NCBI GenBank assembly: GCA_021815445.1
Contig: JAKAGM010000002.1
Span: forward strand, 31,373 to 95,372
DNA: 64,000 nt
Reading direction: 5' to 3'
DNA from: a bacterium
GTDB taxonomy: Bacteria > Patescibacteriota > Patescibacteriia > UBA10025
Part shown: positions 2,354 to 61,054 of the stretch, in pieces
Layout of the letters: each line of letters begins with the position of its first letter
Position numbering within the stretch: the first letter of the stretch is position 1
Program-made: the position numbers and the translations under genes
The notes under the pieces: model-generated
The model's input: only the letters and a program-made list of their open reading frames with translations
Database searches by the model: none
What the model was told of the DNA's origin: nothing

Positions 2354-2595
2354 TGCATGTTTGATACCCGATCGCGGCCGCAGACCTGCCCGCCGCGTGG
2401 CTCCGGCAGGCGGGGAGCCGCGCTCGGAGGGGGAATCCACGCTTGACATTTTTTCATCTCCGGAGCATGATACCTTCTTCGTTCATTCACATTCTCGAGG
2501 GCAGTCGAGAGCGTGGCAAATCGCAGTTTCAGAATTCACCAAACGTAAACCATAGCCGATGGCGTCGACGGTCTAGGCGATTGGAGGGTACGTGT

Positions 2596-3234: not shown

Positions 3235-3286
3235 TTCATCCACTCCCGCCGCTGCCCCGGTGGTTGATCATCAGATGAGCAAACCT

Positions 3287-3320
3287 CGCCCAAACCAAGC
3301 TTTGGGCGGGGAGTTTTTTA
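3287..3320 (+). terminator. Intrinsic terminator after the hypothetical gene
   Basis: Hairpin cgcccaaaccaagctttgggcg followed by gggagtttttta. Confidence 0.5.
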
Positions 3321-3340
3321 TTCTCAAGGACAAGGTTAAC

Positions 3341-3370
3341 CCGAGCGCAGGCAGAGACGCCTGCGCTCGG
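3341..3370. repeat. Palindromic repeat CCGAGCGCAGGC-agagac-GCCTGCGCTCGG, 12-bp perfect stem
   Basis: Perfect inverted repeat. It is the prototype of the family whose other copies are at 24660, 28755, 29937 and 40477. Confidence 0.6.
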
Positions 3371-3453
3371 GATAGTCTTTTTCGATCGCGGGCACGGCGG
3401 CCCGGGCGCGGATTCCTTTGTAAATATCCATATTTTTTGGTACAATAACCGCA

Positions 3454-4527
3454 ATGAACATCCTTGATGACATGAAAAAAATTATACGGCTGGACCGGCA
3501 GAATATGCGCGGGTCTATTGACGCACTCCCTGACCAGATACGGCATGCATGGGCGGAGAGCAGGAAGATAAAATTTCCTGCCCGCTATGCTCAGGCAAAA
3601 AAAGTTGTCGTCGCAGGCATGGGCGGCTCCATCATCGGCGCTCATCTTTTAGAATCAGTTTTTGCCGATGAGTTCAAAGTTCCGTTTGTACGGCTCGGCG
3701 ACTATCGTTTACCAGCTTGGGTGGGTCGCGATACGCTGGTGATTCTCTCCAGCTATTCGGGCACTACAGAGGAGGTTCTCGCGATGGGCAAAGATGCGCT
3801 CGCACGCGGGTGCATGGTGGCGGGTCTATCCGCGGGCGGGACTCTTGCGCGGATGATGAAGGCCCGTCGGTTGCTGTGGTATCACATTGCTCCGACATTC
3901 AACCCTTCTAACCAACCCAGAATGGCTACCGGCTACATGGTTTTTGGGCTGCTTGGTTTATTGTCGCGGCTCCGATTCGTGCACCTCGGCAGCCGGGATG
4001 TAGAGCATATAGTTGCCACATTGCAAGCAAAGCACCACCATCTCGGAATCAAAAAACCGGTACGTAATAACATCGCAAAAACGATTGCCGCGAGACTTGT
4101 CGGCAAATATATCCTCTTTGTTTCTGCGGAACACTTAATCGGCAACGGGCATATCGCCGCAAACCAAATTAATGAGAATGCAAAACAGTTTGCCGCGTAC
4201 TTTTCCCTGCCGGAACTCAATCATCATCTCCTGGAAGCGCTCCGGTTTCCGCGTGAAAATCGGCGCCTGCTCACTGCCGTCTGCTTCCAATCACAGCGTT
4301 ATCACCCGCGGAACCAGCGCCGAGTAAATGCCACTGTCCGCATCCTCCAGCAACAGGGTATCCGCGCGATCATGGTCCCTGTGCGGGGGAAATCCAAACT
4401 TGATGAGGCATTACAAACTGTCCAGCTCGGTGCGTATTCCGGTTACTATCTTGCCATCCTGAACAGGCTAAACCCGGCGCCTATTACCTGGGTCGATGCG
4501 TTTAAGCGCATCATGGCCAGGGCGTAA
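3454..4527 (+). CDS. Bifunctional phosphoglucose/phosphomannose isomerase (SIS domain, archaeal-type PGI/PMI)
   Basis: VVVAGMGGSIIGAHLL and SSYSGTTEE motifs. The ~350-aa length fits the PGI/PMI family. Confidence 0.65.
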   Translation: MNILDDMKKIIRLDRQNMRGSIDALPDQIRHAWAESRKIKFPARYAQAKKVVVAGMGGSIIGAHLLESVFADEFKVPFVRLGDYRLPAWVGRDTLVILSSYSGTTEEVLAMGKDALARGCMVAGLSAGGTLARMMKARRLLWYHIAPTFNPSNQPRMATGYMVFGLLGLLSRLRFVHLGSRDVEHIVATLQAKHHHLGIKKPVRNNIAKTIAARLVGKYILFVSAEHLIGNGHIAANQINENAKQFAAYFSLPELNHHLLEALRFPRENRRLLTAVCFQSQRYHPRNQRRVNATVRILQQQGIRAIMVPVRGKSKLDEALQTVQLGAYSGYYLAILNRLNPAPITWVDAFKRIMARA

Positions 4528-4570
4528 GCGTTTCCATGCGCGCTTTGATGTAAGGGCTGATCTTTCCCGT

Positions 4571-6187
4571 ATGACAACGTCTCACGCCACCCTGTCATGG
4601 TTTCAGACTCACCGCCGTGTTATCGCGGCGCTTTGTCTATTTGCCTTCGCATTTGTATTTTTCCTGTGGCTACAGGATGACCCGACATTTGCGGACCCCG
4701 ACTCGTTTTATCACGCCAAAATGGCCCTGCTCATCCGCGATCAGGGAATCGTCAAAGATTTTCCCTGGCTCCAGGCCACCGTCCTCGCGAAATCTTACAC
4801 TGATCAGCACCTTTTATACCATATTGCCCTGATCCCGTTTGTAACTTTTTTCCAGCCCATTGTCGGGATTAAAATAGCTACTGTTTTGCTTGCCGCCGCC
4901 GTTGTTGAAATGGTGTATCTGCTGCTCTCTGCATTACGAGTCCGGTTTGCCGTGCTGTATGCGTTTATATTGCTTGCAATCGGTCCGTTTATCTTCCGCA
5001 TGAGCTTGGCGAAAGCCCCGAGTGTGTCCATGCTTTTTCTGCTCAGCGGAATATTGCTGATGTTCAAACGCAGACGGTGGTGGCTCTTTATTCTTTCGTT
5101 CCTCTACGTCTGGGCGTACGGCGGCTTTACCCTGTTGCTCGTCGCGGCGGCGATATGGAGCGGAATAGGGTTTTTTGAACAATTCATGCAATCTCCCGCC
5201 CGGATTGGGCGACGTCCCCTGGGTCTCATGATGCACTCGTTCGTGCGCAATGAACATGTCCGTACGGTTTTTTCCGTCTTTTCCGGGATTATCCTGGGCG
5301 TAGTCATCAATCCATATTTTCCGCACAACCTGTTTTTTTACTGGAGCCAACTTGTGCAGATTGGCATTATTAACTACCACTCGGTCATCGGCGTGGGAAA
5401 CGAATGGTATCCTTACCCGTTCATGGACCTGATCTCCAGCACGATATTTCTCACCGTCATCGTGATAATCGCGCTCGTGCTTTTTTCCGTCTTTCTCAGG
5501 TCGCAGCGCCGGCGCTCGTGGATGTTCTTTATCATGGCGGCGTTCTTTTTTCTCCTGACGTTAAAATCAAAACGGTATGTCGAATATTACGTGCCGTTTG
5601 GAATGCTTTTTGGCGCTACGGCTCTGGACACTTCACTCGGACGCATCGATTTCCGGCACTTTTTACGCGATGTCATGGGATGGTATTTTAAACATAAAGT
5701 ATTTGCCATGATTCTTATCGTTTATTTCCTCGTGACCCTTCCAGCCATTGCGGTGCGCGACACTGTCAGTATTAAAGGAGATCTTCGCGGAGGATCTTCT
5801 GTCACGAAATTTGCAGCGGCGAGCAGCTGGCTCGAGAACAATACCCCCGAGCATGCCGTCGTTTTTCATTCAAGCTGGGACGAATTTCCGCTGCTTTTTT
5901 ACCATAATACGCACAATTACTATATTGTCGGCCTCGACCCGACGTTTATGTATACGTACAACAAAGACCTCTATCAAAAAAATGTCGATATTACGACAGG
6001 CGTCGGTGTCCCCAAGATTCAGCAGGTACTCCAAAAAGATTTCAAGGCAAATTATGTTTTTATCGAAAAACACCACGGAGGCATGCACTCGCTGATCAGC
6101 GCCCTCCCCGACGCGAAACTTGTCTATGAGGATAGTGAAGCGTGGATCTATTATTTGCCGCCCGTGCAGAATGATTCCTCTTCCTAA
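4571..6187 (+). CDS. Polytopic membrane protein, GT-C-fold glycosyltransferase-like (G1)
   Basis: More than 10 predicted TM helices. The first extracytoplasmic loop has FADPDSFYHAKMA, a DxD-YH motif that resembles the acidic EL1 motif of GT-C enzymes. There is no WWDYG, so it is not an STT3/AglB. Start chosen at MTTSHATLSW to avoid overlapping the PGI/PMI gene. Confidence 0.4.
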   Translation: MTTSHATLSWFQTHRRVIAALCLFAFAFVFFLWLQDDPTFADPDSFYHAKMALLIRDQGIVKDFPWLQATVLAKSYTDQHLLYHIALIPFVTFFQPIVGIKIATVLLAAAVVEMVYLLLSALRVRFAVLYAFILLAIGPFIFRMSLAKAPSVSMLFLLSGILLMFKRRRWWLFILSFLYVWAYGGFTLLLVAAAIWSGIGFFEQFMQSPARIGRRPLGLMMHSFVRNEHVRTVFSVFSGIILGVVINPYFPHNLFFYWSQLVQIGIINYHSVIGVGNEWYPYPFMDLISSTIFLTVIVIIALVLFSVFLRSQRRRSWMFFIMAAFFFLLTLKSKRYVEYYVPFGMLFGATALDTSLGRIDFRHFLRDVMGWYFKHKVFAMILIVYFLVTLPAIAVRDTVSIKGDLRGGSSVTKFAAASSWLENNTPEHAVVFHSSWDEFPLLFYHNTHNYYIVGLDPTFMYTYNKDLYQKNVDITTGVGVPKIQQVLQKDFKANYVFIEKHHGGMHSLISALPDAKLVYEDSEAWIYYLPPVQNDSSS

Positions 6188-7397
6188 ATATTACCTTGCC
6201 GCAGGACTAGTCATGGCCGCTCTCGCAATAGTTTGGGGCGGTTTCGTCATGGCTCAACCAATCTACGATATCGGTGCAAAGTCTACACCTTTGGTACGCG
6301 ACCAACAGGAGACAATCAGTGTCTATTTTAATCGCGCCGAGTTCATCCCTCGTCATGAGTTTCCCTATTCCCATGTTCTGGAAGAATACCCTGTGCTTGG
6401 CGTGCTTTATATCAGTCTCCCTCGTCTGTTTACCCAGGATCCCGGCGGGTCCATGCAGATATTTTCATTCATGAGCCTGCTGGTCCTGTGCGCGCTGGTC
6501 GCAGTGACTTCCGCACTCCTGAGATTTTTTAAGCGATCTCCGTGGTATCTAACACTTTTTCTCCTGCCTGCAACGCTGTATTTTGCTTTTAACCGTTTTG
6601 ATATTCTCATTGCGCTTATTGTCCAGATAAGTCTGTACATGCTGGTTCGGCGACGGTATGCCTGGGCAATTTTCCTCCTTGCCATAAGTTTTTTTGTGAA
6701 ATGGTACGGCATTCTTTTCGTGCCCGTATATTTGGTATACATGAAAAATACTGTTGCCCCGGAGGTATGGCGAAAGTCATTTCGAAGGATGCTGCGGATC
6801 ATAGGGATAACACTGGTGGTTCCCACAGTCGTCTTATTCATCTTTGCGGGAGTTAACAGCATTCTTCCCTACGCGTTTCACGCCTCACGCGGTATCGAGT
6901 ATGGCAATGTTTTAGTTCCTTTTCTCGAGAGAATGTATCGTGTCCTTCCGCCTTCTCTCGTCCGTTTCCTGATGAAAGCGATTCCGCAGCTTCTTTTTGC
7001 CGGTCAGATTATTCTCCCGCTTGTTATGGCATTAAATCCTAGCGGTTTTATACAAAGAATCAAATCGCACCGCGATGTAGTGCGGTGGATGGTTATTATT
7101 GTCCTTCTTTTCCTCCTTTTCGGGAAATTTTATTCGCCGCAATTTATCCTTTGGTTATTGCCCCTCCTTATTCTTCTCGTACGGCGGTTTTCTGACATCT
7201 TGTTGTTTATTACACTTGACCTCATACACTACCTGTCGTTTCCGCTCATCTATATTCAGTCAGGGTATAATTCCGACGCTTACGCGTTAATGGCGTTTAT
7301 TCGCACGCTCGTATACTGCATCGTGCTGTTCAAAGCACTCCCCGCTACCCGCGCATGGTTTCCCGCAACATCATTTGTAGATACCCAAGAAGGATGA
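6171..7397 (+). CDS. Polytopic membrane protein, putative GT-C/DUF2029-like glycosyltransferase (G2)
   Basis: About 11 hydrophobic segments and no soluble domain. Start uncertain; MIPLPK overlaps the end of G1. Confidence 0.35.
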   Translation: MIPLPKYYLAAGLVMAALAIVWGGFVMAQPIYDIGAKSTPLVRDQQETISVYFNRAEFIPRHEFPYSHVLEEYPVLGVLYISLPRLFTQDPGGSMQIFSFMSLLVLCALVAVTSALLRFFKRSPWYLTLFLLPATLYFAFNRFDILIALIVQISLYMLVRRRYAWAIFLLAISFFVKWYGILFVPVYLVYMKNTVAPEVWRKSFRRMLRIIGITLVVPTVVLFIFAGVNSILPYAFHASRGIEYGNVLVPFLERMYRVLPPSLVRFLMKAIPQLLFAGQIILPLVMALNPSGFIQRIKSHRDVVRWMVIIVLLFLLFGKFYSPQFILWLLPLLILLVRRFSDILLFITLDLIHYLSFPLIYIQSGYNSDAYALMAFIRTLVYCIVLFKALPATRAWFPATSFVDTQEG

Positions 7398-8143
7398 GAC
7401 ACGGAAAAAAAATTATCGCCGTACTGCCCGCGTACAATGCCGAAAAAACGCTGCGCCAGACGCTTCGTGACATTCCTCGCGACGTGGTCGACGATATTAT
7501 ACTCGTTGATGACGCGAGCGCCGACGGTACGGCTTCCCTGTCCCGCTCACTCGGGCTCACGACTATAGTGCATCCGCGCAATCTCGGCTATGGGGGAAAC
7601 CAAAAAACTTGCTACACGGCGGCACTTCATGCCGGGGCGGATGTCGTCATCATGATCCACCCTGACCACCAGTACGATCCGACGCTTGTGCCTGCGATGG
7701 TCGAACCTCTGGCGGCAGGGGAAGCCGACGCAGTTTTCGGTTCGCGGATGCTTGTACCCGGCGGGGCGCTTTCCGGCGGCATGCCACAGTGGAAGTACAT
7801 TGCGAACGCCTTTTTAACCCGGGCGGCCAATGTGTGCATAGGAACGCATCTGAGCGAATACCACTCGGGCTTTCGCGCGTATTCGCGCGCAGTTTTAGAG
7901 CGCGTCCCGTATTCGCTGAATTCGAATAATTTTGTTTTTGATACTGAGATTATCGCCCAGCTCGCTGTATACAACTTTCGTATAAAAGAGATACCTATCC
8001 CCACCAAATATTTTAAAGACGCGTCTACAGTGGGTTTTTGGAAAGGGGTGCAGTACGGTCTCAATATTTTCGGCGTCCTTATGCGCTATCAGCTTCACCG
8101 GCTGGGTATCATCCGGACAAAGCAATTCAGTAAAACCGGTTAA
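7394..8143 (+). CDS. GT2 family polyprenyl-phosphate sugar synthase (Dpm1/ArnC/GtrB-like)
   Basis: IIAVLPAYNAEKTL...ILVDDASADGT and the DxD region VIMIHPDHQYDP, over ~250 aa. Typical of dolichyl/undecaprenyl-phosphate mannosyl- or glucosyltransferases. Confidence 0.7.
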   Translation: MRHGKKIIAVLPAYNAEKTLRQTLRDIPRDVVDDIILVDDASADGTASLSRSLGLTTIVHPRNLGYGGNQKTCYTAALHAGADVVIMIHPDHQYDPTLVPAMVEPLAAGEADAVFGSRMLVPGGALSGGMPQWKYIANAFLTRAANVCIGTHLSEYHSGFRAYSRAVLERVPYSLNSNNFVFDTEIIAQLAVYNFRIKEIPIPTKYFKDASTVGFWKGVQYGLNIFGVLMRYQLHRLGIIRTKQFSKTG

Positions 8144-8210
8144 TTCCGGCAGTCTATCTTTAATTATCTATTTCCATTATTATTCTTGATATAAGTATTT
8201 TTACATTTGT

Positions 8211-9869
8211 ATGGATGCCAATCTCGAACCATATTCCCTGACCTTAAAGTCACTTTGGAAATCTATCGGCAGAGGTGAATGGATATTTATCTCATGCATT
8301 ATATTAATTTCCGTAGCTGTTACGACTTTTCCCTATCTCTATGGGGCCGTGACAGCTCCATCTGGCATGACATACACAGGGATCCATAATCTCACGCCCG
8401 GAGACACGAATGCCTACCTCTCACTCATTGCGTCCGTCAAAGAGGGGACAAATACGTTTGTTAACCTCTTTACCAGCGAGCACCAGTCCGTCGTCGACGT
8501 GAACCCGTTATGGTGGAGTGTCGGAATGTTCGCCAAAATATTTCATCTTTCACCGCTTGCCAGTTTCCACGCAACACGAATCATCCTGATAGGCGTATTA
8601 GTTGTCGTGGCGTATCTTTTTCTCACCCTATGCTTCTCGTCGCGCGCTCGGCGCAAAGTAGCGCTCGTGGTGATTTGCTTTGCATCGGGGGTAGGTTTAT
8701 TCGTGGGTCCATTTGTCTACAACGAAGCTCACCGGATTAATTACCCGGTTGATGCATGGGTGCCTGAAAGCATCCCTTTTTTAATCATGTACAATTCACC
8801 GCACTTCATAGCGTCCCTAATACTGATAGTCATCTGTATCGCACTTATGTACATGGCATTTGTCACGGAAAAGTTCGTCTATTGCATCGCTGCCGGCGTA
8901 GCAGGATTTCTCCTCACCTGGTTCCACCCTTTCGATACGCCCACGGTAGTATGCGTGGTCGGAGTATTTTTGCTTTATCTGATGGTCAAAAGGAAAAAAG
9001 TTTACCGAAGATGGCTCTTGCAGTATTCTCTATATATTCTTCTGATAGCGCCCGCCGCGCTGTATCTTTTTTTCCTTATATATAAAGATCCCGTCATGGC
9101 ATTGTGGCAACAGCAAAATATCCTCCTTTCACCTTCAATCTGGATGTACCTTTCGGCGTTCGCGCTTCTTCTCCCGTTCGTTGTGTATGCGCTCATTCGC
9201 AATGACCTCAAAAGATCCGGAATCACGCGACTTCTGATAGTATGGATCGCCGTCTCAGCTATTCTCTTATACGTTCCGGTGAATTTCCAGCGGAGGATGG
9301 TCGAAGGATTATTCATCCCGGTCGCCATTTTGGCTGCAGATGGAATCGTGACGCTCTGGGAACGGTTAAAGATTTCGGCTGTACAGCATGGGTTACAATC
9401 ACTGCTCCTTTTCGGACTGGTGGTATTCTTGCCGTTGACGAATTTACAGATAATTGGTCAGGATGTAAGCCAATATGCGACAATGAAGGATTTTCCATTT
9501 TATCTTACGTCAGGCGAGATGGACACTCTCTCTTGGATAAAGAACGCTACTGATACCCAGTCAATTTTTCTCTCGAGCAGGTATTTCGGTAATTTTATTC
9601 CCGCGTACGCGATCCGCCGGGTATATATAGGGCATGGGCCGCAGACAATAGATCTCGAGCGTAAGATTCCTGAGGTTTACAATTTCTACACAGGAGCATG
9701 GGACGATGCCGCCCGCGAGCGTTTCTTAAAGGAAAAAGGCATTGCCTACGTGGTCATCGGACCCCGTGAAGAAGCATACGGAAGCACTGATCTCGCGAAT
9801 AAACCATTTTTGAAACTTGTACATTCGACATCGGATACTCGTGTGTATGCGGTTATCGCTCATCGCTAG
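8211..9869 (+). CDS. Polytopic membrane protein, GT-C-like (G3), tandem paralog of G4
   Basis: More than 10 TM helices. An N-terminal loop carries GDTNAYLSL...NLFTSEHQS. The C-terminus IPAYAIRRVYIGHGPQT is paralogous to 9903..11456. Confidence 0.4.
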   Translation: MDANLEPYSLTLKSLWKSIGRGEWIFISCIILISVAVTTFPYLYGAVTAPSGMTYTGIHNLTPGDTNAYLSLIASVKEGTNTFVNLFTSEHQSVVDVNPLWWSVGMFAKIFHLSPLASFHATRIILIGVLVVVAYLFLTLCFSSRARRKVALVVICFASGVGLFVGPFVYNEAHRINYPVDAWVPESIPFLIMYNSPHFIASLILIVICIALMYMAFVTEKFVYCIAAGVAGFLLTWFHPFDTPTVVCVVGVFLLYLMVKRKKVYRRWLLQYSLYILLIAPAALYLFFLIYKDPVMALWQQQNILLSPSIWMYLSAFALLLPFVVYALIRNDLKRSGITRLLIVWIAVSAILLYVPVNFQRRMVEGLFIPVAILAADGIVTLWERLKISAVQHGLQSLLLFGLVVFLPLTNLQIIGQDVSQYATMKDFPFYLTSGEMDTLSWIKNATDTQSIFLSSRYFGNFIPAYAIRRVYIGHGPQTIDLERKIPEVYNFYTGAWDDAARERFLKEKGIAYVVIGPREEAYGSTDLANKPFLKLVHSTSDTRVYAVIAHR

Positions 9870-9902
9870 CCGTATGCGTCTCCGTATCCATGGCATGGTG
9901 CT

Positions 9903-11456
9903 ATGATTTTTTCTCCGGCGGACAAAAAGTTTTTGACAGTTGTTACTGCAATTATTGTCATTATTGCGGCGATACCTTTTATCTACGCAGTGATGTCGAC
10001 ACCCAACGGCATGGCCTATAGCGGGAGGCATGCGCAAAACAGCGGAGATTACGCGGTGTATTTCTCCCAGATGGAGCAGGCTCGGCAGGGGCATATGCTA
10101 TTTTTAAATTTGTTTACCAGCGAGAGCCATGCGCGTACCATCTTTGATCCCGTCTGGCTCGTACTTGGTTGGATATCGCGGGTTACCGGATTATCTATTC
10201 CTCTCACCTTTCATGTAGCCCGGCTCATAGCAATCCCGCTATTTATATCGGTCGCCGCGCGCTTTGTGTGGACTATGCTTGATGATGCCCGTGAGCGGCG
10301 AGTCGCATTGCTCATGATCAGTTTCGGGGGCGGTATCACCGGCTATGCGAAGACGACCGATGCTTCAGCGTTTCATGCCATGCAGTTTTCCCCCCATGTG
10401 GTGCTCTCCCTCACTTTTTTGCTGGCAATATTTCTACTTATGTATCGCAGCTTTCATCTGCACATTATCCGATATGCGGTATACGCGGGATTCCTCGGGC
10501 TTGTATTATTTTTTTTCCACCCGTATCACATTTCGACAACCTATGGAATACTCGGTGCATACGCCATGGTAATGATCTTCCTTCGGAGATCACCAGCGTG
10601 GAGTATCATCAGCTCCTTCGCTGTCTATGTCGCCCTCTCAGTTCCGGCTGTCCTGTATTATTGGTTGTTCTTTAAACTTTCTCCTATCGGCAGCGGATGG
10701 TTGGCACAAAGCGATTCACTTATGCACGCAAGACCCCCGTGGGAAATTCTTTGGTCATTTGCCCCATTAGTTCTACTTGCGTTGATCGGGTACAAAGTCC
10801 TTTTAAACGAGCGACGTGAACAGGCGATATTCATGGTAACCTGGATCGTCATCGCTCTTACACTGATGTGGACTCCATGGTTTTTTCGCATGCGCACGAT
10901 TGGTGGAATGACCATTCCTCTGAGTATAGCGTCTGCGGCGGGTATCGTGTGGCTTCTGCGAATTGTGGCGCTCAGGAAGTCCGCTATGGCGTGGTCCATG
11001 GTGTTGATTATCGCCATTATCGGTACCACTATGCCCGTGCACGGTATGACGTTTATTCACAACATAGCTGTTTACGCTCAGCAGGTCGATTATGCGTATA
11101 TCTCCGATGAACTTGTCGATGTGATACGGGTATACAGACAGCAGGCGACTGATACCGACGTACTTCTCGCTTCTCCGTATACGAGCAATATTATTCCGGC
11201 ATTAACGGGTCGAAAAGTGTATATAGGCCACGGCATTCAAACCCTTTCTTCACATCAAAAAGTGAAGGACATTAACGCATTTTTCTCCCGGGCGGCGAAT
11301 GATGATCCTACATATACAGAACTTCGTTCATTGGGGATTACTTTTCTTCTGATTACCCCAAAGGAGCAGGAACTCGGGATGCTGCCACTCGATAATGCGC
11401 CGTTTCTGCAGATAGCTGCGCGAGAAGGGCCTTATTCTCTTTATCGTGTGCGCTGA
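9903..11456 (+). CDS. Polytopic membrane protein, GT-C-like (G4), tandem paralog of G3
   Basis: Shares SGDYAVYFS...NLFTSESHA and IPALTGRKVYIGHGIQT with G3. Confidence 0.4.
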   Translation: MIFSPADKKFLTVVTAIIVIIAAIPFIYAVMSTPNGMAYSGRHAQNSGDYAVYFSQMEQARQGHMLFLNLFTSESHARTIFDPVWLVLGWISRVTGLSIPLTFHVARLIAIPLFISVAARFVWTMLDDARERRVALLMISFGGGITGYAKTTDASAFHAMQFSPHVVLSLTFLLAIFLLMYRSFHLHIIRYAVYAGFLGLVLFFFHPYHISTTYGILGAYAMVMIFLRRSPAWSIISSFAVYVALSVPAVLYYWLFFKLSPIGSGWLAQSDSLMHARPPWEILWSFAPLVLLALIGYKVLLNERREQAIFMVTWIVIALTLMWTPWFFRMRTIGGMTIPLSIASAAGIVWLLRIVALRKSAMAWSMVLIIAIIGTTMPVHGMTFIHNIAVYAQQVDYAYISDELVDVIRVYRQQATDTDVLLASPYTSNIIPALTGRKVYIGHGIQTLSSHQKVKDINAFFSRAANDDPTYTELRSLGITFLLITPKEQELGMLPLDNAPFLQIAAREGPYSLYRVR

Positions 11457-11691
11457 TTGCCAGCGGACGGTTACGAAACTGTCAGCACCCCTCATTTTTT
11501 ATTGCTTCGTTCCGTAAGAAGTCAAATGCTCCCATTATTATGTACTGCGGGCTTCTTGTCCACCTTGTGTCACCCCGGTGAACCCATATCTCAAACCACC
11601 GGGAATGTTTTTTGCGAACATATCCCCTGTGCGCAGCTATAGTTACTACTCCCATGATATATGGTGCATGCCCGTGGAGTCCTCTTCCGGA

Positions 11692-13632
11692 TTAAAAGAG
11701 TCTCGCAGCATCCCCTGCCGGTTTTTCTTTATCGATATGCATGCTTGCCGAGCGTAATCCGTCGAGTGTCATGTAGCCCGTGACGTCAACAAGCTGGATG
11801 TCGGCATGTTCAATATTCGCTCCCGCGGGCTTCGCAAACCAGTAGTTCATCTGCACATTCTGTCCTGGCATCCACGTTGATGCCGGGTACAACCCGTAGG
11901 CGAGCGGATAGAGCTTGTTATTCACGACGTTCCCATGGTCATCAGTAAGCCTGATAAGCATCTGGTAATTTTTTTGTATCTGTCCCGTGGCTTGCATCAC
12001 CAGAGTAATGCCGAGCTCATCACTTCCCTGGGGCAGAGATTGCCAGCCAAGGAGTTTCGCGTTCGGCCCGAGCTCTTGAGGTGCTCCCTGCAGGTCGGTG
12101 GGTGGAACGCTTATTATGCGCACGAGCGGATTCACCTCTGTCGTTCGGCGGGTATAAAGAACTACTGTATCAAATATCTGGGTCGGCACGAATCCCCGGT
12201 CCAAAAGCTCACGGATATGCTCCGGTCCGGATGTTTTAGCTCGAGCATATGGCGCTATGGAGAACGATTGGAGGTGATAGATGAGAAAATCGTTGTAATC
12301 AACCAGTACTGTGTCTGCATCCTGAGGGATAGTATACGGGGCCAGAGAATATTGCCGTGTTCCTTCGAATGCATAGTGGAGCGAATACACCTTGTCCCGT
12401 CCGGAAAGGTCAGTAAGGGGCGCAAAACTCGCGACCACCGATGCATCAGACGGTACAGCCGCAATCGCCTGTGCCAGCGCATGCTGGTTTTGGTCACGCG
12501 TGGTGGATGTTGAAATCAGCGGAAGGAGGGGTCCGAACGTGAGGGCGCCATAGATGGTCGCTGTCGTCATGAGTATGAGACTGAGATTGAGCATATGCGG
12601 CACTTGTCTGAATATTTTCGGCGGCTTTTCCTTCAATTTCTGCAGACCCATGATGGTGGCCATGAATATAAAGGGTATAAGGAGGGCGCTGTAATGAGTT
12701 TTTAGCACGAGCTCTGTAAAGCCGGTAAGGAAAAGCTGCAAGAAAATCAGAAGCGATGGAATCAATAGACGGGGCCTTAACAACGGCAGACCAACAAAAG
12801 GCAGGAGCAATGCAATAGCCATGACAATCGTGTTAAATGACATGAGTTTGTTGAATAGCGAAGGGATGCTGGAGAGCAAAGAAACTAAAGATGAATGTGC
12901 GCTTGCCTGCAGTGTCGGGTAGTATGCAAAATATTTGTACGCGCCGTCAGGGTTCATGTGAGAAATGAACGCAAGCGACCCGGCAAACCATGCAGTGCCG
13001 AGAAGCAAAGGAATTATCACCCACTTCTTTGTTCGACGATCGCACAGGGCGAGCACGCCGAACATGAATACCACGAGTGCGACGTCTTCGCGTACAAGAA
13101 AGCTTATTATGAGAAAGATGAGGAATGGGGTGAACTTGTTTTCGAGATACATCGCGACTGCCCAGGCGAGAAATAGTATCCCGAACGGCAGAATATGAAA
13201 TTCAAATGCGTTGGTATTTTGAACAAACGGGTTTGCTAAATATAACAACGCAATGCCAGCAGCGATCCCTGGCCCGAGCTTTGATTTGGCAATCCGGTAT
13301 ATCGGCCACGCAGCGAGCGCGATGCCGACAGTTTGCATCAGGAGAAGCGTGAAGGGCGTTTTGCTTATCATATAGAGCGGGAGCAGAAGAATGATCAACG
13401 GTTCAAAATGGTCTCCGAGGTAGCTCTGCGGATGTATAGTCATGCCGAAGAGATCACCGTGTGAGGAATGCCAGAACACCTGATTATAAATCGCCAGGTC
13501 AATAGCATTGTACTTATGGAGCGTAAGTTTCACAAAACCCAGGAAAGCGAATACCGCTATGTAGACAACCATGCCTCCTACGACAAATAGCGCACCTCTC
13601 CGTTCCATTATTTTTCTCAGCCAATATGCCAT
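11692..13632 (-). CDS. DUF2079-like large integral membrane protein, putative GT-C
   Basis: AIDLAIYNQVFWHSSHGDLF...HFEPLI resembles the DUF2079 N-terminal motif. 646 aa, polytopic. Confidence 0.4.
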   Translation of the reverse strand: MAYWLRKIMERRGALFVVGGMVVYIAVFAFLGFVKLTLHKYNAIDLAIYNQVFWHSSHGDLFGMTIHPQSYLGDHFEPLIILLLPLYMISKTPFTLLLMQTVGIALAAWPIYRIAKSKLGPGIAAGIALLYLANPFVQNTNAFEFHILPFGILFLAWAVAMYLENKFTPFLIFLIISFLVREDVALVVFMFGVLALCDRRTKKWVIIPLLLGTAWFAGSLAFISHMNPDGAYKYFAYYPTLQASAHSSLVSLLSSIPSLFNKLMSFNTIVMAIALLLPFVGLPLLRPRLLIPSLLIFLQLFLTGFTELVLKTHYSALLIPFIFMATIMGLQKLKEKPPKIFRQVPHMLNLSLILMTTATIYGALTFGPLLPLISTSTTRDQNQHALAQAIAAVPSDASVVASFAPLTDLSGRDKVYSLHYAFEGTRQYSLAPYTIPQDADTVLVDYNDFLIYHLQSFSIAPYARAKTSGPEHIRELLDRGFVPTQIFDTVVLYTRRTTEVNPLVRIISVPPTDLQGAPQELGPNAKLLGWQSLPQGSDELGITLVMQATGQIQKNYQMLIRLTDDHGNVVNNKLYPLAYGLYPASTWMPGQNVQMNYWFAKPAGANIEHADIQLVDVTGYMTLDGLRSASMHIDKEKPAGDAARLF

Positions 13633-13725
13633 GGCATTATTGTACAGAAAAAGCGCGCTAAAACAAACACCCTCTCCGTTGCCGGAGAGAGTGCCGTATA
13701 ACGTTGAAATCTAGGTGAAAAGTCA

Positions 13726-14085
13726 CTAGTTGGTGACGTTTGAGGTAGTCTGTACGACGAAGATGACGATTGCCCAAGCGAGCAGGACGACGATGAGGCC
13801 GATGACTGCCGCTGAAATAATCTTTTTCGCACTGGCTACTTTTTCTTCGTTTCCGCCGGCTGTCATCCACTGGAATCCACCGATGAGAATCATAATGACC
13901 GCAACGAGGCCGAGAAGGCCGAGCGCCCATTGGATAATCTTAATGACTGTGCTTTGGAGACCTGCAGTTCCGAGGCCAAACGTTGAACCAAAGTCCTCAT
14001 TGATGAGGGCGGTAGCTCCTGCGCTTAATGGCAGCAAAAAAATGCCGAGCGCGAGAGAAGCTGATAATATTTTTTTCATTTTCAT
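13726..14085 (-). CDS. TrbC/VirB2-like pilin-like protein P1
   Basis: Signal peptide followed by two TM helices around the motif ILIGGFQWMTAGGNEEKV. The start ATG-AAA-ATG lies after GGAGGTG. The tail VVQTTSNVTN is Ser/Thr-rich. Confidence 0.55.
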   Translation of the reverse strand: MKMKKILSASLALGIFLLPLSAGATALINEDFGSTFGLGTAGLQSTVIKIIQWALGLLGLVAVIMILIGGFQWMTAGGNEEKVASAKKIISAAVIGLIVVLLAWAIVIFVVQTTSNVTN

Positions 14086-14133
14086 AATCTCACCTCCTTC
14101 CATCGAGTGAGTATAAGTAACCTCACTGAGTGT

Positions 14134-14162
14134 ATATAAGCATTTTTCAATCTAAATGTCAA
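14134..14162 (-). promoter_or_regulatory. Sigma70-like promoter driving P1 (TTGACA-N17-TTATAT on the minus strand)
   Basis: Minus-strand sequence cttgacatttagattgaaaaatgcttatatacact, about 50 nt upstream of the P1 start. Confidence 0.45.
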
Positions 14163-14211
14163 GTTTTCTGTGTAAATAAAGGGGTTTTTCAGTAAAACAG
14201 GGATCGAAAAA

Positions 14212-14559
14212 CTATGTACTGACCGAGTTCAGCGAGTCGAAAATAAACTTAAGTACAGTATAGCTCAAAGTGATTGCAACGACACCGATTGTCGCCCACA
14301 GGAGAGTGTCCCGGCCTTTCTTGACGAGGGTCGGATTGCCGCCCGACATCAAGAGTTCGAATCCCCCGAGGATAAACATAAAGAGGGCAAAAATGTCTAC
14401 CGCGCCAAGCACGAGACGCAGCGACCGCACGACAACGGTGATGAGATCCGCATTATTAAAATCTTTGCCCAGGGGATTCGGCAGTGTCACATCGGCTTGA
14501 GCGATAAGCGGGAAGAGGCAGAGTACCAGGAGAGAAAAGGCGAGTAAATGACGTTTCAT
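14212..14559 (-). CDS. TrbC/VirB2-like pilin-like protein P2
   Basis: Signal peptide and FILGGFELLMSGGNPTLVKKG core, paralogous to P1. Confidence 0.55.
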   Translation of the reverse strand: MKRHLLAFSLLVLCLFPLIAQADVTLPNPLGKDFNNADLITVVVRSLRLVLGAVDIFALFMFILGGFELLMSGGNPTLVKKGRDTLLWATIGVVAITLSYTVLKFIFDSLNSVST

Positions 14560-14608
14560 AGTTGCGGGGTAAAAGGATTATTTCGAAAGAAAAATATTTT
14601 TCTTGATA

Positions 14609-15529
14609 TTAAGGCTGGCACTGGGTAATTGAGGCGCACGAAGTTTGATCGCGGAGGTAATGGTCGCTTGCTACCGTACTGCATCCGCGAACCGGCTCAG
14701 GCGGGACACAATCATGCTTTGTCGTATCGTAAGGGACACAGCATCCCTGATCGAGATTCTGACACTGCTCATATTGCGAACACTCTGTCGCCTGGATCCA
14801 TGCCGTGGAGCAATCACTGCCGATACAATACGTTTTATCTGTCATGTACTTATCACATCCCGTTTTTGACTCGGCGTCAAGGCACCCCTGGAGAGTGACG
14901 CAGCAACCCGTACCCGGTGTAGTTACGGGAGTGATCTGGCTCCCTGTGCCTCCTCCCCACCACGGTTTTGCGCTGTTGGTCCCGGGAAAAACATTTGAAC
15001 TCCCGGTGAGAATAAAGACGACAAAGTTTGCCCACATCCAGGCGAGGATGAGAATAATAATCACTCCCAGCACGACGCCAAGGATCATGCGCTTGCCTTG
15101 CTGTATTTTTTCCGGGTTGCCTCCCGACGTGATGAGGTTAAATCCTCCCCAGATGAAAAATAGCATCGCGACTATTGGGAGGGCTATGAGCGCCGAGGAG
15201 GACATATTCACGAATGTCTGGACGAAGTCGTCGGGTTGGCACGGGCGCACTTCCCTGCAGTACTTGTCGTATTTCTTGCATGTTTTACTGTCAGACGGAC
15301 AGTCTGATAAAAGCTGTTTTGAAGTCGAATCAATGACGTAGACAGGGGTCTGGTCGCAAAAAGGAAGGAAATAAAGCCGCGGGGGAGTTAATTCTTCTAT
15401 GGGCTGTTTCGAAACCTCTTTACATGTTGGATTAATTGCCGTGCTCGCCGCAAGCGACGGGTGCGCAAACACAAGTGATCCGGCAATCACCGCCATGAGC
15501 AGAAAAAATGTTACTGATCGCAGGCGCAT
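14609..15529 (-). CDS. TrbC/VirB2-like pilin-like protein P3 with N- and C-terminal Cys-rich extensions
   Basis: Core FFIWGGFNLITSGGNPEKIQQGKRMI is paralogous to P1 and P2. The C-terminal ~110 aa contain about 16 Cys (GTGCCVTLQGCL...CCVPYD...) and a Ser/Thr/Gly-rich linker. Confidence 0.5.
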   Translation of the reverse strand: MRLRSVTFFLLMAVIAGSLVFAHPSLAASTAINPTCKEVSKQPIEELTPPRLYFLPFCDQTPVYVIDSTSKQLLSDCPSDSKTCKKYDKYCREVRPCQPDDFVQTFVNMSSSALIALPIVAMLFFIWGGFNLITSGGNPEKIQQGKRMILGVVLGVIIILILAWMWANFVVFILTGSSNVFPGTNSAKPWWGGGTGSQITPVTTPGTGCCVTLQGCLDAESKTGCDKYMTDKTYCIGSDCSTAWIQATECSQYEQCQNLDQGCCVPYDTTKHDCVPPEPVRGCSTVASDHYLRDQTSCASITQCQP

Positions 15530-15533
15530 AATT

Positions 15534-16907
15534 TTAATAACTTTGTTCTATCTCCTTGGACGCGAAGGTAATCGCGTCAGGAAGTGTCTGCGTCCCTGTC
15601 GTCACTGCGCGCACCATATTAGCAAAAGCTGTTTCTGCCGCGCCGGGATCCCTGCCATGGTACCAGCTTTTTGCATTGACAGCCTCCTGAGCAAAAGTGG
15701 AAATCAGCGGATCAGCGTCCTGGATATCCACATTGACCAGCGAGGTCAGCGCCGCCGTCTTTCCCGACGTCACGAGGTATTTAACCACGACATCGGGACG
15801 GGAAAGGTATTGGATAAAGTCCCAGGCTTCATTCGCATGCGTCGATCGTTTCGCCACTGATTGCACCCAGTAATTTGCATAATAAACGGGTCGCGCGGGA
15901 TCAACTTGGGGCATCGGGCCCACAGACCAATTGAGCTTCGACGCCTGGTTTTTTATGATATCCCTTTGGTATTCGTACCCGAAGAAAAATGCGGTTTTAC
16001 CCGCAATAAATGCTTCGAGAGCATCAGGCATCTGGCTATCCCATGAATGCACCTGTTTCGTAGGGAGCGCGAAATCGGTGTAGAACCTCAGCGCTTCCAG
16101 GCCTGGCTGTGAGGTAGCATTGTCTGCCGCACTGTTGGCGAATGCCATTTTGCCTTTGGCATCCACCATTGTCGCCCCATTTTGCATCATCAGCGCTGAA
16201 ACAATATCAAAAACGCGCGGAATATTGTTACCAGTGCCAAGCGCCGCGCCTGACTGGACTATTTTTCCCGTCGAATCCAGGATGGTCAGCTTGGGCACGA
16301 TATCGATGAATTCGTTCCATGTGCTCGGCGGCTGGGTAATCAATGCGTAGTTCAAAAGGTCTTTGTTATAAAATAACGTGAGTGTATCCATGCTCTGCGG
16401 CAGTCCCCATATCTTGCTTTGGAGGATGACATCTTGGGGGACTACGCTGACAAAACGATTGCGGACCTCATTCAAAGTAATCGACGGGGCGGCCTTGTAG
16501 GAAATTGTCAGCTCTTGTTTGATGCCAAGCGGCCGAGAAATCTGGTACCAGGCCATTCGGGTCGATGCGGGCATCGGCGTGAGGAATTCATTTGCCTGGA
16601 ATTTTCCTATCCATGAATTCGGCAGCGCAAAAATATCAGGTCCGGCTCCCCGCGCCCACGCCTGGATGAGTGAATTTTCATATTCCTCCATTCTAAATTT
16701 TTTATAGGTAATGGTGACGTACGGATGCAATTGTTTATACGCGCTGATAACTCCCGCATATGACGATTCGTCGTCAAAGACTCCCCACCATTCCAAGCTT
16801 ACTGCCGGGGGCGCCTGCGTTTTATTTCCGCCTATCATGAACAGAACGACGGCAATGATCGCCACGACTACCGCTCCCCCGATAATAATTAACGTTCCGC
16901 GCTTCAT
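15534..16907 (-). CDS. Extracellular solute-binding protein (SBP family 1, sugar-type) with N-terminal TM anchor; no cognate permease nearby
   Basis: LEWWGVFDDESSYAGVISAYKQLHPYVTITYKK...GAGPDIFALPNSW is the typical SBP_bac_1 N-terminus. No permease or ATPase genes are adjacent. Confidence 0.6.
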   Translation of the reverse strand: MKRGTLIIIGGAVVVAIIAVVLFMIGGNKTQAPPAVSLEWWGVFDDESSYAGVISAYKQLHPYVTITYKKFRMEEYENSLIQAWARGAGPDIFALPNSWIGKFQANEFLTPMPASTRMAWYQISRPLGIKQELTISYKAAPSITLNEVRNRFVSVVPQDVILQSKIWGLPQSMDTLTLFYNKDLLNYALITQPPSTWNEFIDIVPKLTILDSTGKIVQSGAALGTGNNIPRVFDIVSALMMQNGATMVDAKGKMAFANSAADNATSQPGLEALRFYTDFALPTKQVHSWDSQMPDALEAFIAGKTAFFFGYEYQRDIIKNQASKLNWSVGPMPQVDPARPVYYANYWVQSVAKRSTHANEAWDFIQYLSRPDVVVKYLVTSGKTAALTSLVNVDIQDADPLISTFAQEAVNAKSWYHGRDPGAAETAFANMVRAVTTGTQTLPDAITFASKEIEQSY

Positions 16908-17788
16908 AGACTCTGAGTAAGCTTCTTAAGATATTTGCGAAGATCAGTCCCGAGTTCCTGGCGCCTCAACGCAAATTCAATGTTAGCCTTCAGGTACTCA
17001 AGCTTATTTCCCGTGTCGTAGTAACGCGCGTTTTTTATCTCGACAGCGTTCACCGGCTCCTGCGCGATGAGCATATTTATGGCGTCCACGAGCCAGATCT
17101 CGCCGTCCCGTCCGGGCCTCGTCTGTGCCAGGCATGAAAAAATAGACGGAGTGAAGATATACCCGCCGTGCGCGGCGAGATTGGACGGTGCGTCCTCTGG
17201 TTTGGGCTTTTCAACGATTTTATTCAGGCGCCAGATATTTTTTTTCACATGTTCTCCGTCTGCAATGCCGTATTTTGAAAGTTCCCGGCGGTTCTTTATC
17301 GTAATGGCGCTGACGACGGATCCGCCTATTTCCTCGTACACTTCCATCATCTGCTGGAGTCGCGGAGGTTCGGAGGCAATAAACTCATCCCCCCAGAGCA
17401 CTGCAAAGGGCTCGTCGCCCACGACATGCCGGGCGCAAAGAACCGGCGTCCCATTGCCATAGGGGCCTTTTTGGCGGACATAAATAAAATTTGCCATTTC
17501 AGCAATTTTTCGGACTTCCTCGAGCTCTTTCATTTTCCCCGCCTTTTCGAGACGTTTTTCAAGTTCAAAAGGATAGTCGAAATGGTCCTCGATAGATTTC
17601 TTTTGCCATCCCGTCACGATGATAATGTCCTCGATGCCCGAGCGCACCGCTTCCTCAACGACATACTGTATGATGGGCTTGTCGACAATCGGCAACATCT
17701 CTTTCGGTTGGGCTTTTGTCGCAGGCAAAAAACGCGTGCCATAACCAGCCGCGGGGATGACTACTTTTCGAATTTTCTTTTTCCCCAT
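16904..17788 (-). CDS. galU: UTP--glucose-1-phosphate uridylyltransferase
   Basis: KVVIPAAGYGTRFLPATKAQPKEMLPIVDKPIIQY is the GalU signature. Confidence 0.85.
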   Translation of the reverse strand: MGKKKIRKVVIPAAGYGTRFLPATKAQPKEMLPIVDKPIIQYVVEEAVRSGIEDIIIVTGWQKKSIEDHFDYPFELEKRLEKAGKMKELEEVRKIAEMANFIYVRQKGPYGNGTPVLCARHVVGDEPFAVLWGDEFIASEPPRLQQMMEVYEEIGGSVVSAITIKNRRELSKYGIADGEHVKKNIWRLNKIVEKPKPEDAPSNLAAHGGYIFTPSIFSCLAQTRPGRDGEIWLVDAINMLIAQEPVNAVEIKNARYYDTGNKLEYLKANIEFALRRQELGTDLRKYLKKLTQSL

Positions 17789-57967: not shown

Positions 57968-57972
57968 AGTAA

Positions 57973-61047: not shown

Positions 61048-61054
61048 AGGGGGA

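Follow-up and report, generated by a model that had tools for sequence, protein, structure and literature searches.

What might a locus do in which sugar-activation genes, a putative polyprenyl-phosphate-sugar synthase and several large membrane proteins face an array of pilin-like genes? Patescibacteria are ultrasmall episymbionts that contact their host cells through surface structures, and the chemistry of their envelope is poorly known. We analysed a window of 64,000 nucleotides from one such bacterium, uncultured and Kerfeldbacteria-like (contig JAKAGM010000002.1), in which all twelve ORFs that a first-pass annotation had claimed for two convergent clusters are present, with the coordinates and strands listed below. 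The plus-strand cluster PGI/PMI-G1-G2-GT2-G3-G4 (3454-11456) converges on the minus-strand cluster GalU-SBP-P3-P2-P1-DUF2079 (17788-11692):

3454-4527, plus: PGI/PMI, bifunctional phosphoglucose/phosphomannose isomerase-like SIS protein, 357 aa (Pfam bact-PGI_C, 103 bits)
4571-6187, plus (databases call the start at 4571; an ORF start at 4496 is possible): G1, STT3/AglB-like GT-C glycosyltransferase, 538 aa
6171-7397, plus (possible ORF start at 6120): G2, GT87/DUF2029-like GT-C membrane protein by homology, 408 aa
7355-8143, plus: GT2 family glycosyltransferase, polyprenyl-phosphate-hexose synthase-like, 262 aa (PF00535, 77 bits)
8211-9869, plus: G3, GT-C glycosyltransferase with an AglB-type C-terminal domain but without the WWD motif, 552 aa
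9903-11456, plus: G4, G3 paralog by BLASTP, 517 aa
11692-13632, minus: DUF2079 polytopic membrane protein with a C-terminal extracytoplasmic domain, 646 aa (PF09852)
13666-13695, minus: terminator-like hairpin between P1 and DUF2079, 13-bp stem with 7 GC pairs and a T-rich tail (a consensus match only)
13726-14103, minus: P1, VirB2-like T4SS_pilin protein, 125 aa as ORF, ending in QTTSNVTN (PF18895, 51.4 bits)
14212-14559, minus: P2, VirB2-like pilin paralog, 115 aa, ending in DSLNSVST (BLASTP to P1, E 1.8e-13)
14609-15529, minus: P3, pilin core between two Cys-rich ecto-domains, 306 aa (PF18895, 33.2 bits, residues 109-169)
15534-16907, minus: SBP, membrane-anchored family-1 solute-binding protein, 457 aa (SBP_bac_1, 102 bits)
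16904-17788, minus: GalU, UTP-glucose-1-phosphate uridylyltransferase, 294 aa (TIGR01099, 346.4 bits, cut-off 326.8)

Conservation of the locus

The region had been labelled an island. We regard it instead as a core locus that was not horizontally acquired, because the GC content is flat (0.46-0.52 over 2-20 kb) and the locus occupies the identical position beside RuvC-YebC in distant relatives. The order PGI-G1-[G2]-[GT2]-G3 facing DUF2079-pilins-P3-SBP-GalU recurs in L001 and throughout a set of 80 species-level genomes whose G1 identities range from 37 to 61%. The loci of this set were taken from the best matches to G1, and possibly all belong to a single class (Kerfeld-, Falkow-, Buchanan- and Kuenenbacteria). 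The synteny check proposed with the first-pass annotation revealed a strongly conserved neighbourhood in these relatives and, together with the GT-C assignment described below, speaks against polytopic transporters or unrelated families in a neighbourhood that relatives do not share. In 48 of 71 related loci, G1 is immediately preceded by the PGI/PMI gene; in all 19 loci with enough flanking sequence, a pilin gene comes after the DUF2079 gene; and in 21 loci the SBP gene is kept between P3 and GalU.

Within this framework, accessory GT-C genes have been gained and lost, and the number and type of GT-C genes differ among relatives. G3 is present in 1-3 copies per locus, and the G4 label applies to only 2 of the 80 loci, extra copies elsewhere scoring better as G3. 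Minimal loci retain only PGI-G1 facing pilins-SBP-GalU, having lost G2, G3 and DUF2079, and G1 then directly abuts the pilin array. Could the shared gene order nevertheless be coincidental, with pilins serving a Patescibacteria T4SS encoded elsewhere and an unrelated glycosyltransferase cluster inherited alongside them within one class? A study that makes no mention of glycosyltransferases in this context has described arrays of 2-11 VirB2-like pilin genes across Patescibacteria, often near virB4 (Microb Genom 2025, PMC12102498). The derivation of all 80 loci from best G1 matches would suit such an explanation, as would the upstream RuvC-YebC, also conserved and surely unrelated in function. 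Yet the adjacency outlasts not only the gain and loss of GT-C genes but also the inversion and expansion of the pilin array beside a duplicated G1 (L023, L059, L066 and L074) and the variation of the flanks beyond GalU. Moreover, GalU and SBP sit co-oriented on the pilin side with overlapping or abutting reading frames, which splits sugar activation over both clusters, and T4SS machinery is absent from the window. We therefore consider coincidental synteny quite improbable.

GT-C glycosyltransferases and sugar supply

None of G1-G4, each with about 10-13 hydrophobic segments, matched a Pfam family in the profile search. They had been regarded as unassignable, which holds for Pfam families, but G1 can now be placed near AglB/STT3/PglB, and G3 and G4 as divergent relatives of G1. 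Like G3, G1 has a polytopic GT-C membrane domain. In G1 this is followed at the C-terminus by an AglB/PglB-type domain of mixed alpha/beta structure, and the top 13 Foldseek matches of G1 are all catalytic subunits of oligosaccharyltransferases (OSTs; E 1.7e-9 to 5e-8). The archaeo_STT3 model (TIGR04154) was matched by 17 of 36 G1 orthologs (best E 1.7e-13), and a G1 sub-profile matched AfAglB-L (E 1.7e-4). G1 itself falls outside formal GT66 membership, with 30 bits against TIGR04154 (cut-off 450); neither G1 nor any of the 36 orthologs matched Pfam STT3 (PF02516), and the N-terminal G1 sub-profile found no match in the PDB.

Across 41 G1 orthologs, DPDSFYH, VGxEW, RYVEY and (S/D)WD(E/D)F are invariant. 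Within the first of these motifs, located in the first extracytoplasmic loop, the acidic residues D44 (invariant) and D42 (nearly so) lie just past TM1 in the model. In the profile alignment, the invariant R335 is aligned to R426 of AfAglB-L (R375 of PglB), which we take to be the Arg contacting the donor phosphate. WLxxNTP of G1 is aligned to WMRENTP of AglB, preceding the AglB WWDYG motif (presumably residues 550-554); this motif binds the +2 Ser/Thr of the sequon. The corresponding residues of the G1 orthologs, which follow WLxxNTPxxxxV, are SDWDEF, SSWDEF or NDWDDF: one W and the D never vary, the first W has no counterpart, and YG is replaced by (E/D)F. Judged by sequence position, D78-x-H80 and V275-G-x-E278-W are candidates for the metal-binding DxD/DxH motif and the EL5 Glu (TIxE/SVSE), respectively. 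The N-oligosaccharyltransferases AglB/STT3/PglB are the nearest relatives of G1; the relationship is distant and was previously unrecognised.

G3 is homologous to G1 (hhalign probability 96%) and shares 28% identity with G4 over ~515 aa (BLASTP, E ~1e-67). An invariant D65 within TPGD is located just past TM1 in the G3 model, and G3 reads SRYFGN at the WWD site; the WWD motif is absent from G4 as well. G2 itself does not match PF09594, a domain carried by 4 of its 10 detectable homologs, and is linked to the G1 family by hhalign (probability 72%, E 3.4e-5). The DUF2079 protein matches PF09852 over residues 41-445 (184 bits, cut-off 28.2) and aligns with G3 over 382 columns (hhalign probability 61%, E 8e-5). 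Of the proposed five or six GT-C-like proteins we count five, with the fold shown for G1 and G3 and homology supporting G4, G2 and DUF2079. We read G1-G4 as GT-C glycosyltransferases, of which G3 and G4 are paralogs homologous to G1, and G2 is probably GT87-like.

On the supply side, GalU is genuine as claimed, its TIGR01099 match exceeding the equivalog cut-off, and PGI/PMI reaches 238 bits with the NCBIfam PGI/PMI models, under their equivalog cut-offs; judged by sequence, GalU is assigned at the equivalog level and PGI/PMI at the family level only. No phosphoglucomutase gene was found in the locus. The SBP is weakly MalE-like, with an N-terminal TM anchor and no Cys, and it is indeed an orphan, with no ABC permease or ATPase within 3-20 kb. 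The GT2 protein resembles a polyprenyl-phosphate sugar synthase, as had been proposed: besides PF00535, its best NCBIfam matches, all below cut-off, are AglJ (83 bits, cut-off 325), PpgS (75, cut-off 370) and a DolP-hexose transferase (59, cut-off 375). A putative role in donor formation is supported by the relatives P0042 and P0048, which carry a domain of this GT2 type at the N-terminus of a G3-like protein. For OST-type enzymes, a monosaccharide phosphate would be an uncommon donor. The donor of G1 may be something other than the GT2 product, because a PAP2 phosphatase takes the place of GT2 in some minimal loci.

The same enzymes might also build or decorate a lipoglycan, a wall polysaccharide or a teichoic-acid-like polymer, in parallel with mycobacterial PimE/AftA/Emb and Gram-positive CsbB/YfhO, with the pilins being mere neighbours of envelope function. 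Five different GT-C proteins suit stepwise polymer assembly better than modification of a single protein, as does their variation among relatives; the relatives of G2 are GT87/PimE-like, DUF2079 weakly matches a "cell surface glycopolymer formation" family, and G3 and G4 lack the WWD acceptor-peptide motif. A glycopolymer is more difficult to reconcile with G1, which in both structure and sequence has protein N-glycosyltransferases in particular as its best relatives, and with the minimal loci, where G1 stays against the pilins despite the loss of the other enzymes. Nor does the locus contain a priming phosphoglycosyltransferase, polymerase or ligase gene.

The pilin array and its C-terminal tails

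VirB2-like pilin arrays are essential in the one Patescibacteria species tested. P1-P3 had been described as three small secreted pilin-like proteins with Ser/Thr-rich tails. All three are of the T4SS_pilin type, each having three hydrophobic segments, the first a signal peptide and the other two TM segments; P1 and P3 exceed the PF18895 gathering cut-off of 26.6 bits, and P2, slightly under it with 24.2 bits, belongs to the family by homology to P1. P3, however, is not small, and the tails exist but comprise merely ~8 residues. The 20 Cys of P3 are distributed on both sides of the pilin core (6 N-terminal and 14 C-terminal), and the proteins that hold its position in related loci are about 150-666 aa long. 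Related loci contain 1-10 pilin copies. The suggestion that the locus assembles a pilus is unsupported, as no VirB4, VirB6 or other T4SS or assembly gene is found within the window.

The sole sequon of P1, N122-V-T, is located at its C-terminus. P1 orthologs adjoining DUF2079 retain LLAWAIVIFVAxTTxNVTx at their ends, and the two pilins nearest the glycosyltransferase genes in related loci end in TTxNVTx, on the extracytoplasmic side; P2 and P3 lack the TTxNVT motif. At the two GT-proximal positions, 14 of 25 and 11 of 24 pilins have an NxS/T among their 14 C-terminal residues, as against 1 of 19 and 1 of 13 pilins at the distal ones. Altogether, 45 of 133 tails carry a sequon, compared with 29.9 +/- 4.0 in shuffles, an enrichment in which the samples are not independent because the sequences are related. 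The Asn is not strictly conserved, with Asp and Lys variants, and V-T is more constant than N. The tail sequon lies ~4-6 residues past the hydrophobic helix, closer than the eukaryotic OST tolerates. The conserved adjacency and the TTxNVT tail suggest, indirectly, that the pilins could be the acceptors. A T-rich/NVT ecto-tail conserved on the GT-adjacent pilins and absent from the distal ones is not what an envelope glycopolymer would call for, and we find that alternative rather unlikely.

Proposed mechanism and comparison with known systems

For the preferred reading, a conserved core locus of ABY1/Kerfeldbacteria-type Patescibacteria encoding an outer-face lipid-linked-sugar glycosylation system genomically coupled to a VirB2-like pilin array, we see about an even chance. 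PGI/PMI and GalU would provide hexose phosphates and UDP-glucose, and GT2, judged by its family and the GT2::G3 fusions, would attach a hexose to polyprenyl phosphate on the cytoplasmic side of the membrane. A putative flippase would expose the lipid-linked sugar outside, where the five GT-C enzymes would pass it to acceptors. Given its kinship with the oligosaccharyltransferases AglB/STT3/PglB, its nearest relatives, G1 is the best candidate for attaching sugar to protein. G2, G3, G4 and DUF2079 might then add or extend sugars, on the model of Haloferax AglD/AglS or of ALG mannosyltransferases. The glycosylation would thus take place outside the membrane and act probably on the pilin-like proteins encoded opposite, most likely at the extracytoplasmic TTxNVT tail of P1-type pilins and possibly on the P3 ecto-domains, through a presumed N- or O-linkage. 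A more specific version, which we consider unlikely, is that G1 represents the founder of a family of minimal AglB-like OSTs, large, unannotated and spread throughout the Patescibacteria, N-glycosylating the C-terminal N-V-T of VirB2-type pilins, with the glycan extended by G2, G3, G4 and DUF2079 from polyprenyl-phosphate sugars.

The locus is a concrete candidate for how surface proteins or the envelope of Patescibacteria become glycosylated, and it allows several families of large "hypothetical" membrane proteins to be assigned, among them the G1 family of thousands of members (about 3,400 clusters at 50% identity), a distant relative of AglB/STT3. A genomic coupling of a putative glycosylation system to conjugation-type pilins is, to our knowledge, unreported, and dedicated glycosylation of VirB2-like pilins would, if true, likewise be the first. 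If the pilins are glycosylated, this would bear on host recognition, on surface variation in the phylum and on the spread of STT3-type enzymes in bacteria. Our literature search found no paper connecting OST homologs with Patescibacteria, so AglB-like bacterial protein N-glycosylation, if true, would occur in a phylum for which we found none reported.

G1 resembles AglB/STT3/PglB (GT66) in its GT-C transmembrane fold with an AglB-type C-terminal globular domain, an architecture shared by G3 and G4, in the first-loop motif D-P-x-x-(F/Y)-Y-(H/R), in the invariant Arg and in a W-D-containing motif at the site of the OST WWDYG. It differs in its size (538 aa versus about 700-870), in lacking a Pfam STT3 match and in having (S/D)WD(E/D)F in place of WWDYG, a motif lost in G3 and G4. 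The donor implied by GT2 would be a polyprenyl-monophosphate hexose instead of a pyrophosphate-linked oligosaccharide, and the host is a Patescibacterium. In three-component systems of a GT2 synthase, a flippase and a GT-C enzyme (GtrA/B/C, ArnC/ArnT, CsbB/GtcA/YfhO, Ppm1/PMT and Haloferax AglD/AglR/AglS), we find the same association of a DPM1/GtrB/AglJ-like GT2 with GT-C proteins, here also fused in relatives and accompanied by sugar-nucleotide supply genes. Unlike them, the present locus contains no GtrA- or Wzx-type flippase gene, has five GT-C proteins of at least three subfamilies instead of one, and is coupled to VirB2-like pilins, a feature of none of these systems.

The first-pass annotation had cited pilin O-oligosaccharyltransferases as its precedent. 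PilO/PglL, however, belong to the Wzy_C/O-antigen-ligase family with a fold different from GT-C; AglB/PglB, the protein O-mannosyltransferases and TfpW, the GT-C arabinosyltransferase of Pseudomonas group IV pilins, are better precedents. PilO/PglL and TfpW share with our locus a membrane glycosyltransferase encoded beside pilin genes and a lipid-linked donor outside the membrane, but, compared by description, they act on type IV (PilA-type) pilins, whereas the pilins here are of the VirB2/TrbC type. Finally, like the previously described Patescibacteria arrays (PMC12102498), P1-P3 are tandem divergent PF18895 paralogs; unlike those, the present array lies away from virB4 and T4SS genes, inside a putative glycosylation locus, and its lead members carry the TTxNVT tail.

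Gene content of the two clusters

All twelve named open reading frames of the two convergent clusters are present at the positions that the first-pass annotation had assigned to them, and family searches confirmed its more straightforward assignments (PGI/PMI, GT2, DUF2079, SBP and galU). GalU is a true UDP-glucose pyrophosphorylase.

Family matches of the annotated proteins
PGI/PMI-type SIS protein, plus strand: bact-PGI_C, 103 bits
GT2 glycosyltransferase, plus strand: PF00535, 77 bits
DUF2079 protein, minus strand: DUF2079 domain, 184 bits
SBP, family-1 solute-binding protein, minus strand: 102 bits
GalU nucleotidyltransferase, minus strand: TIGR01099 equivalog cut-off passed, 346 versus 327 bits
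Pilins P1 and P3, minus strand: Pfam T4SS_pilin cut-off passed
Pilin P2, minus strand: slightly under the T4SS_pilin cut-off, clear P1 homolog

The pilins required some correction. P3, which had been taken for a small protein, has 306 residues, its pilin core being flanked by two ecto-domains that hold 20 cysteines, and the Ser/Thr-rich tails attributed to the pilins exist with a length of only about 8 residues. The four plus-strand polytopic proteins, G1 to G4, contain 11–13 hydrophobic segments each; none of them matched Pfam, and the sole NCBIfam match among them was a weak one of G1 to archaeo_STT3. The GC content is flat over the region and the chromosomal position is conserved, which rules out a horizontally acquired island. 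Promoter-like sites were about equally frequent in the scan and in shuffled sequences (26 versus 21.3 ± 4.7), and terminator-like sites were about 2.4 SD above the shuffles (30 versus 17.6 ± 5.1), the most prominent hairpins being at 13666-13695 and 3284-3371, with individual sites representing consensus matches only.

Several further features of the window were recorded:

2443-3234, plus strand: 263-aa open reading frame with a TTG start between YebC and PGI, without Pfam or NCBIfam match or TM segment; strong terminator-like hairpins lie 3' of it (3284-3311 and 3340-3371), and no gene occupies this position in three related loci (L001-L003), where YebC is directly followed by PGI or a 567-aa gene
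30013-32661, minus strand: secreted subtilase of 882 aa, carrying TIG and FG-GAP repeats by Pfam annotation, without a record under exact sequence look-up
33-36 kb: low-GC stretch (0.39) after the subtilase, encoding an M23-peptidase-like protein and containing an open reading frame of 322 aa without annotation
51358-53415, plus strand: unusually long (685 aa) spermine/spermidine-synthase-domain protein, its exact sequence found on 10 public contigs
53584-53670, minus strand: single 87-nt tRNA, the only Rfam match in the 64 kb, its length being suggestive of a long variable arm; the gene of a GIY-YIG endonuclease adjoins it

G1 and the other GT-C-like proteins

AlphaFold2 models built on family alignments reached a pLDDT of 93.2 for G1 and 93.5 for G3. 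A Foldseek search with G1 returned catalytic subunits of oligosaccharyltransferases (STT3A/B, yeast Stt3, PglB and AglB) as the top thirteen hits, with E-values from 1.7e-9 to 5e-8 and TM-scores of about 0.6; PMTs ranked far below them. The fold led us to reject transporters as the identity of the polytopic proteins. The NCBIfam archaeal STT3 model matched 17 of 36 G1 orthologs, with a best E-value of 1.7e-13, although the match falls far short of the curated cut-off. A profile of G1 residues 255-475 matched AfAglB-L in the PDB (E 1.7e-4), placing the invariant Arg335 on Arg426 of AglB and the segment WLxxNTP on its WMRENTP. Directly after this segment, where oligosaccharyltransferases have WWDYG, G1 orthologs carry an invariable (S/D)-W-D-(E/D)-F. 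The first outer loop of G1 contains an invariant DPDSFYH similar to the DPxxYYR of STT3/AglB; AglB residues 49-66 are visible in the profile alignment, and the DP of the AglB motif is D47-P48. The profile of residues 255-475 was the only G1 sub-profile to reach AglB, the N-terminal one (residues 12-215) having no PDB match, and the full-length profiles of G3 (A1) and G1 (A2) returned only noise, such as nanobodies and centaurin, against PDB sequences, as did the single G1 sequence. Sequence motifs and the model together point to the AglB/STT3/PglB family as the closest relatives of G1, with the aligned positions as candidate catalytic residues, even though G1 lies formally outside the family by its lack of a Pfam STT3 match.

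The other polytopic proteins are connected to G1 at various distances. Homology between G1 and G3 extends over about 390 columns (hhalign probability 96%, E 3.6e-9); G3 keeps an RR..E element and has SRYFGN at the WWDYG position. G4 is a paralog of G3 (28% identical), GT87/DUF2029 is carried by four of ten homologs of G2, which has no match itself, and the DUF2079 and G3 profiles are weakly similar (E 8e-5). The earlier count of five or six GT-C-like proteins was thus correct, judging from the G1 and G3 models, the homology among the G proteins and the similarities of G2 and DUF2079. G1 defines a large unannotated family: 3,420 representative clusters match at E ≤ 1e-3, of which 1,426 do so at E ≤ 1e-30, and no fewer than 565 species-level genomes contain it. 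A 2025 paper described VirB2-like pilin arrays in Patescibacteria, with no mention of glycosyltransferases alongside them (PMC12102498). Our literature search on OST/STT3/AglB/PglB in CPR, GT-C enzymes in Patescibacteria and DUF2079, incomplete in coverage and thus compatible with the existence of such work, returned nothing relevant.

Conservation of the gene order

The G1 profile was used to fetch 80 species-level genomes with 37–61% identity, in which order and orientation are the same wherever the contig allows. Within ±10 kb, PGI was found in 56 of them, G3 in 47, GT2 in 44, DUF2079 in 35, pilins in 34, SBP in 21 and GalU in 12, with 1 to 10 pilin copies per locus. A pilin gene follows DUF2079 in all 19 cases having at least 1.5 kb of sequence past DUF2079. 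The neighbourhood, whose lack of conservation would have counted against the first-pass proposal, is clearly conserved. One relative with 42% identity in G3 has YebC/RuvC and PGI-G1-G2-G3 facing DUF2079, two pilins, a large pilin, an SBP-like gene and GalU. Another with 31% identity has RuvC-YebC, a 567-aa gene corresponding to G1 by position alone, and a GT2::G3 fusion facing DUF2079. Several species have a minimal form without G2, GT2, G3 and DUF2079, in which PGI, in some cases a PAP2_3 phosphatase, and G1 converge directly on pilins, P2, in some cases P3, SBP and GalU. From the minimal loci and the order in the 80 genomes, the constant core is PGI-G1 facing pilins-SBP-GalU, with the remaining GT-C genes inserted variably where the two clusters converge. 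Neutral synteny is an unlikely explanation of this arrangement, because the adjacency survives rearrangements and the sugar-activation genes are split over both clusters, GalU lying with the pilins and PGI with the glycosyltransferases.

In other relatives, a duplicated G1 lies beside an inverted, expanded pilin array. Four such loci (L023, L059, L066 and L074, at about 8–17 kb in each) have two tandem G1 paralogs followed by the array, in which 4–8 plus-strand pilin genes are inserted between minus-strand pilins. PMT_2-like and PIG-U-like genes occupy the same convergence point elsewhere (L052:11605-12390 and L052:13339-14628). The convergence point appears to be a hotspot for GT-C gene swapping, because different GT-C families take the same slot in other relatives.

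Sugar donors, pilin tails and possible function

Among named proteins, GT2 best matches AglJ, PpgS and dolichyl-phosphate hexose transferase; each of these is a polyprenyl-phosphate sugar synthase, and each match scores under its cut-off. In more distant relatives, a GT2 domain of the same kind is fused N-terminally to a G3-like protein: P0042 has GT2 at residues 5-225 (E 4e-13) and a G3-like part at 242-789 (31% identity, E 1e-89), and P0048 is a similar fusion. The strongest evidence for G3 using the product of GT2 comes from this fusion. The locus contains neither a flippase nor a phosphoglucomutase. Lipid-linked sugar flippases (ArnE/F) are found among the DMT proteins, and an EamA/DMT protein nearby is therefore a possible candidate for the missing flippase. 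Sugar-related genes outside the two clusters are as follows:

19782-20618, minus strand: weak EamA/DMT-family membrane protein (E 1e-4), 2-4 kb past GalU
20785-21549, minus strand: TrmB-type sugar-specific regulator, 2-4 kb past GalU; a TrmB gene is also close to the related locus L002, and the GC content at 20-22 kb of the window is low (0.417)
54177-62958, minus strand: second sugar-related run with GlmS-like amidotransferase/SIS, nucleotidyltransferase with a hexapeptide domain, aminotransferase, zinc alcohol dehydrogenase, CofD-like protein and a further TrmB regulator; a role in amino-sugar supply is possible

The PAP2_3-family membrane phosphatase of minimal-locus relatives is encoded either between PGI and G1 or amid the GT-C genes (L017:8968-9945, L031:5155-6060, L052:12387-13352) and is absent from the window. 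It could mean recycling of polyprenyl pyrophosphate, in which case the STT3-like G1 would use a donor linked through pyrophosphate.

A possible acceptor site was found at the pilin C-terminus. Pilins of ranks 1 and 2, counted from the DUF2079/glycosyltransferase side of the array, share a strikingly conserved end, ...LLAWAIVIFVA-x-T-T-x-N-V-T-x, in the set of 80 loci, and P1 ends in ...VVQTTSNVTN, which contains its sole N-x-S/T sequon. Among rank-1 pilins 14 of 25, and among rank-2 pilins 11 of 24, have a sequon in their 14 C-terminal residues, compared with only 1 of 19 at rank 3 and 1 of 13 at rank 4. Among 133 short pilins, 45 carry a tail sequon versus 29.9 ± 4.0 in composition-preserving shuffles (maximum 44 in 2,000), and 36 carry NxT versus 20.3 ± 3.6, all these tail counts coming from related sequences that are not independent. 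The predicted topology (signal peptide, TM1, Lys-rich loop, TM2) places the tail outside the membrane, with the motif only a few residues past the hydrophobic helix. Some orthologs have Asp or Lys in place of the tail Asn and keep V-T. Alternatively, the conserved end might serve as a processing signal; in Gram-negative systems, VirB2/TrbC pilins undergo trimming and cyclisation.

It is highly probable that the locus encodes a glycosylation system that depends on lipid-linked sugars and GT-C enzymes and works outside the membrane. The full model, in which the adjacent VirB2-like pilins would be the acceptors and G1 the enzyme that modifies them, is the reading we prefer, inferred with about even confidence; N-linkage specifically is unlikely in our view. 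The main rival of the model, the assembly of an envelope glycopolymer, is favoured by the number and variability of the GT-C enzymes and by AftA and ArnT matching G3 equally well; we consider it rather doubtful. The first-pass annotation had proposed a dedicated system that assembles and glycosylates a pilus-like appendage or envelope glycoconjugate. Its observation of the locus stands, and its interpretation, which the results support in part, becomes more specific in the pilin-directed model; assembly of a pilus has no support, because the window holds no T4SS assembly genes. Glycosylation by polyprenyl-phosphate sugars and GT-C enzymes is known from other systems; what is new is the phylum and the genomic context, with enzymes of the STT3 superfamily.
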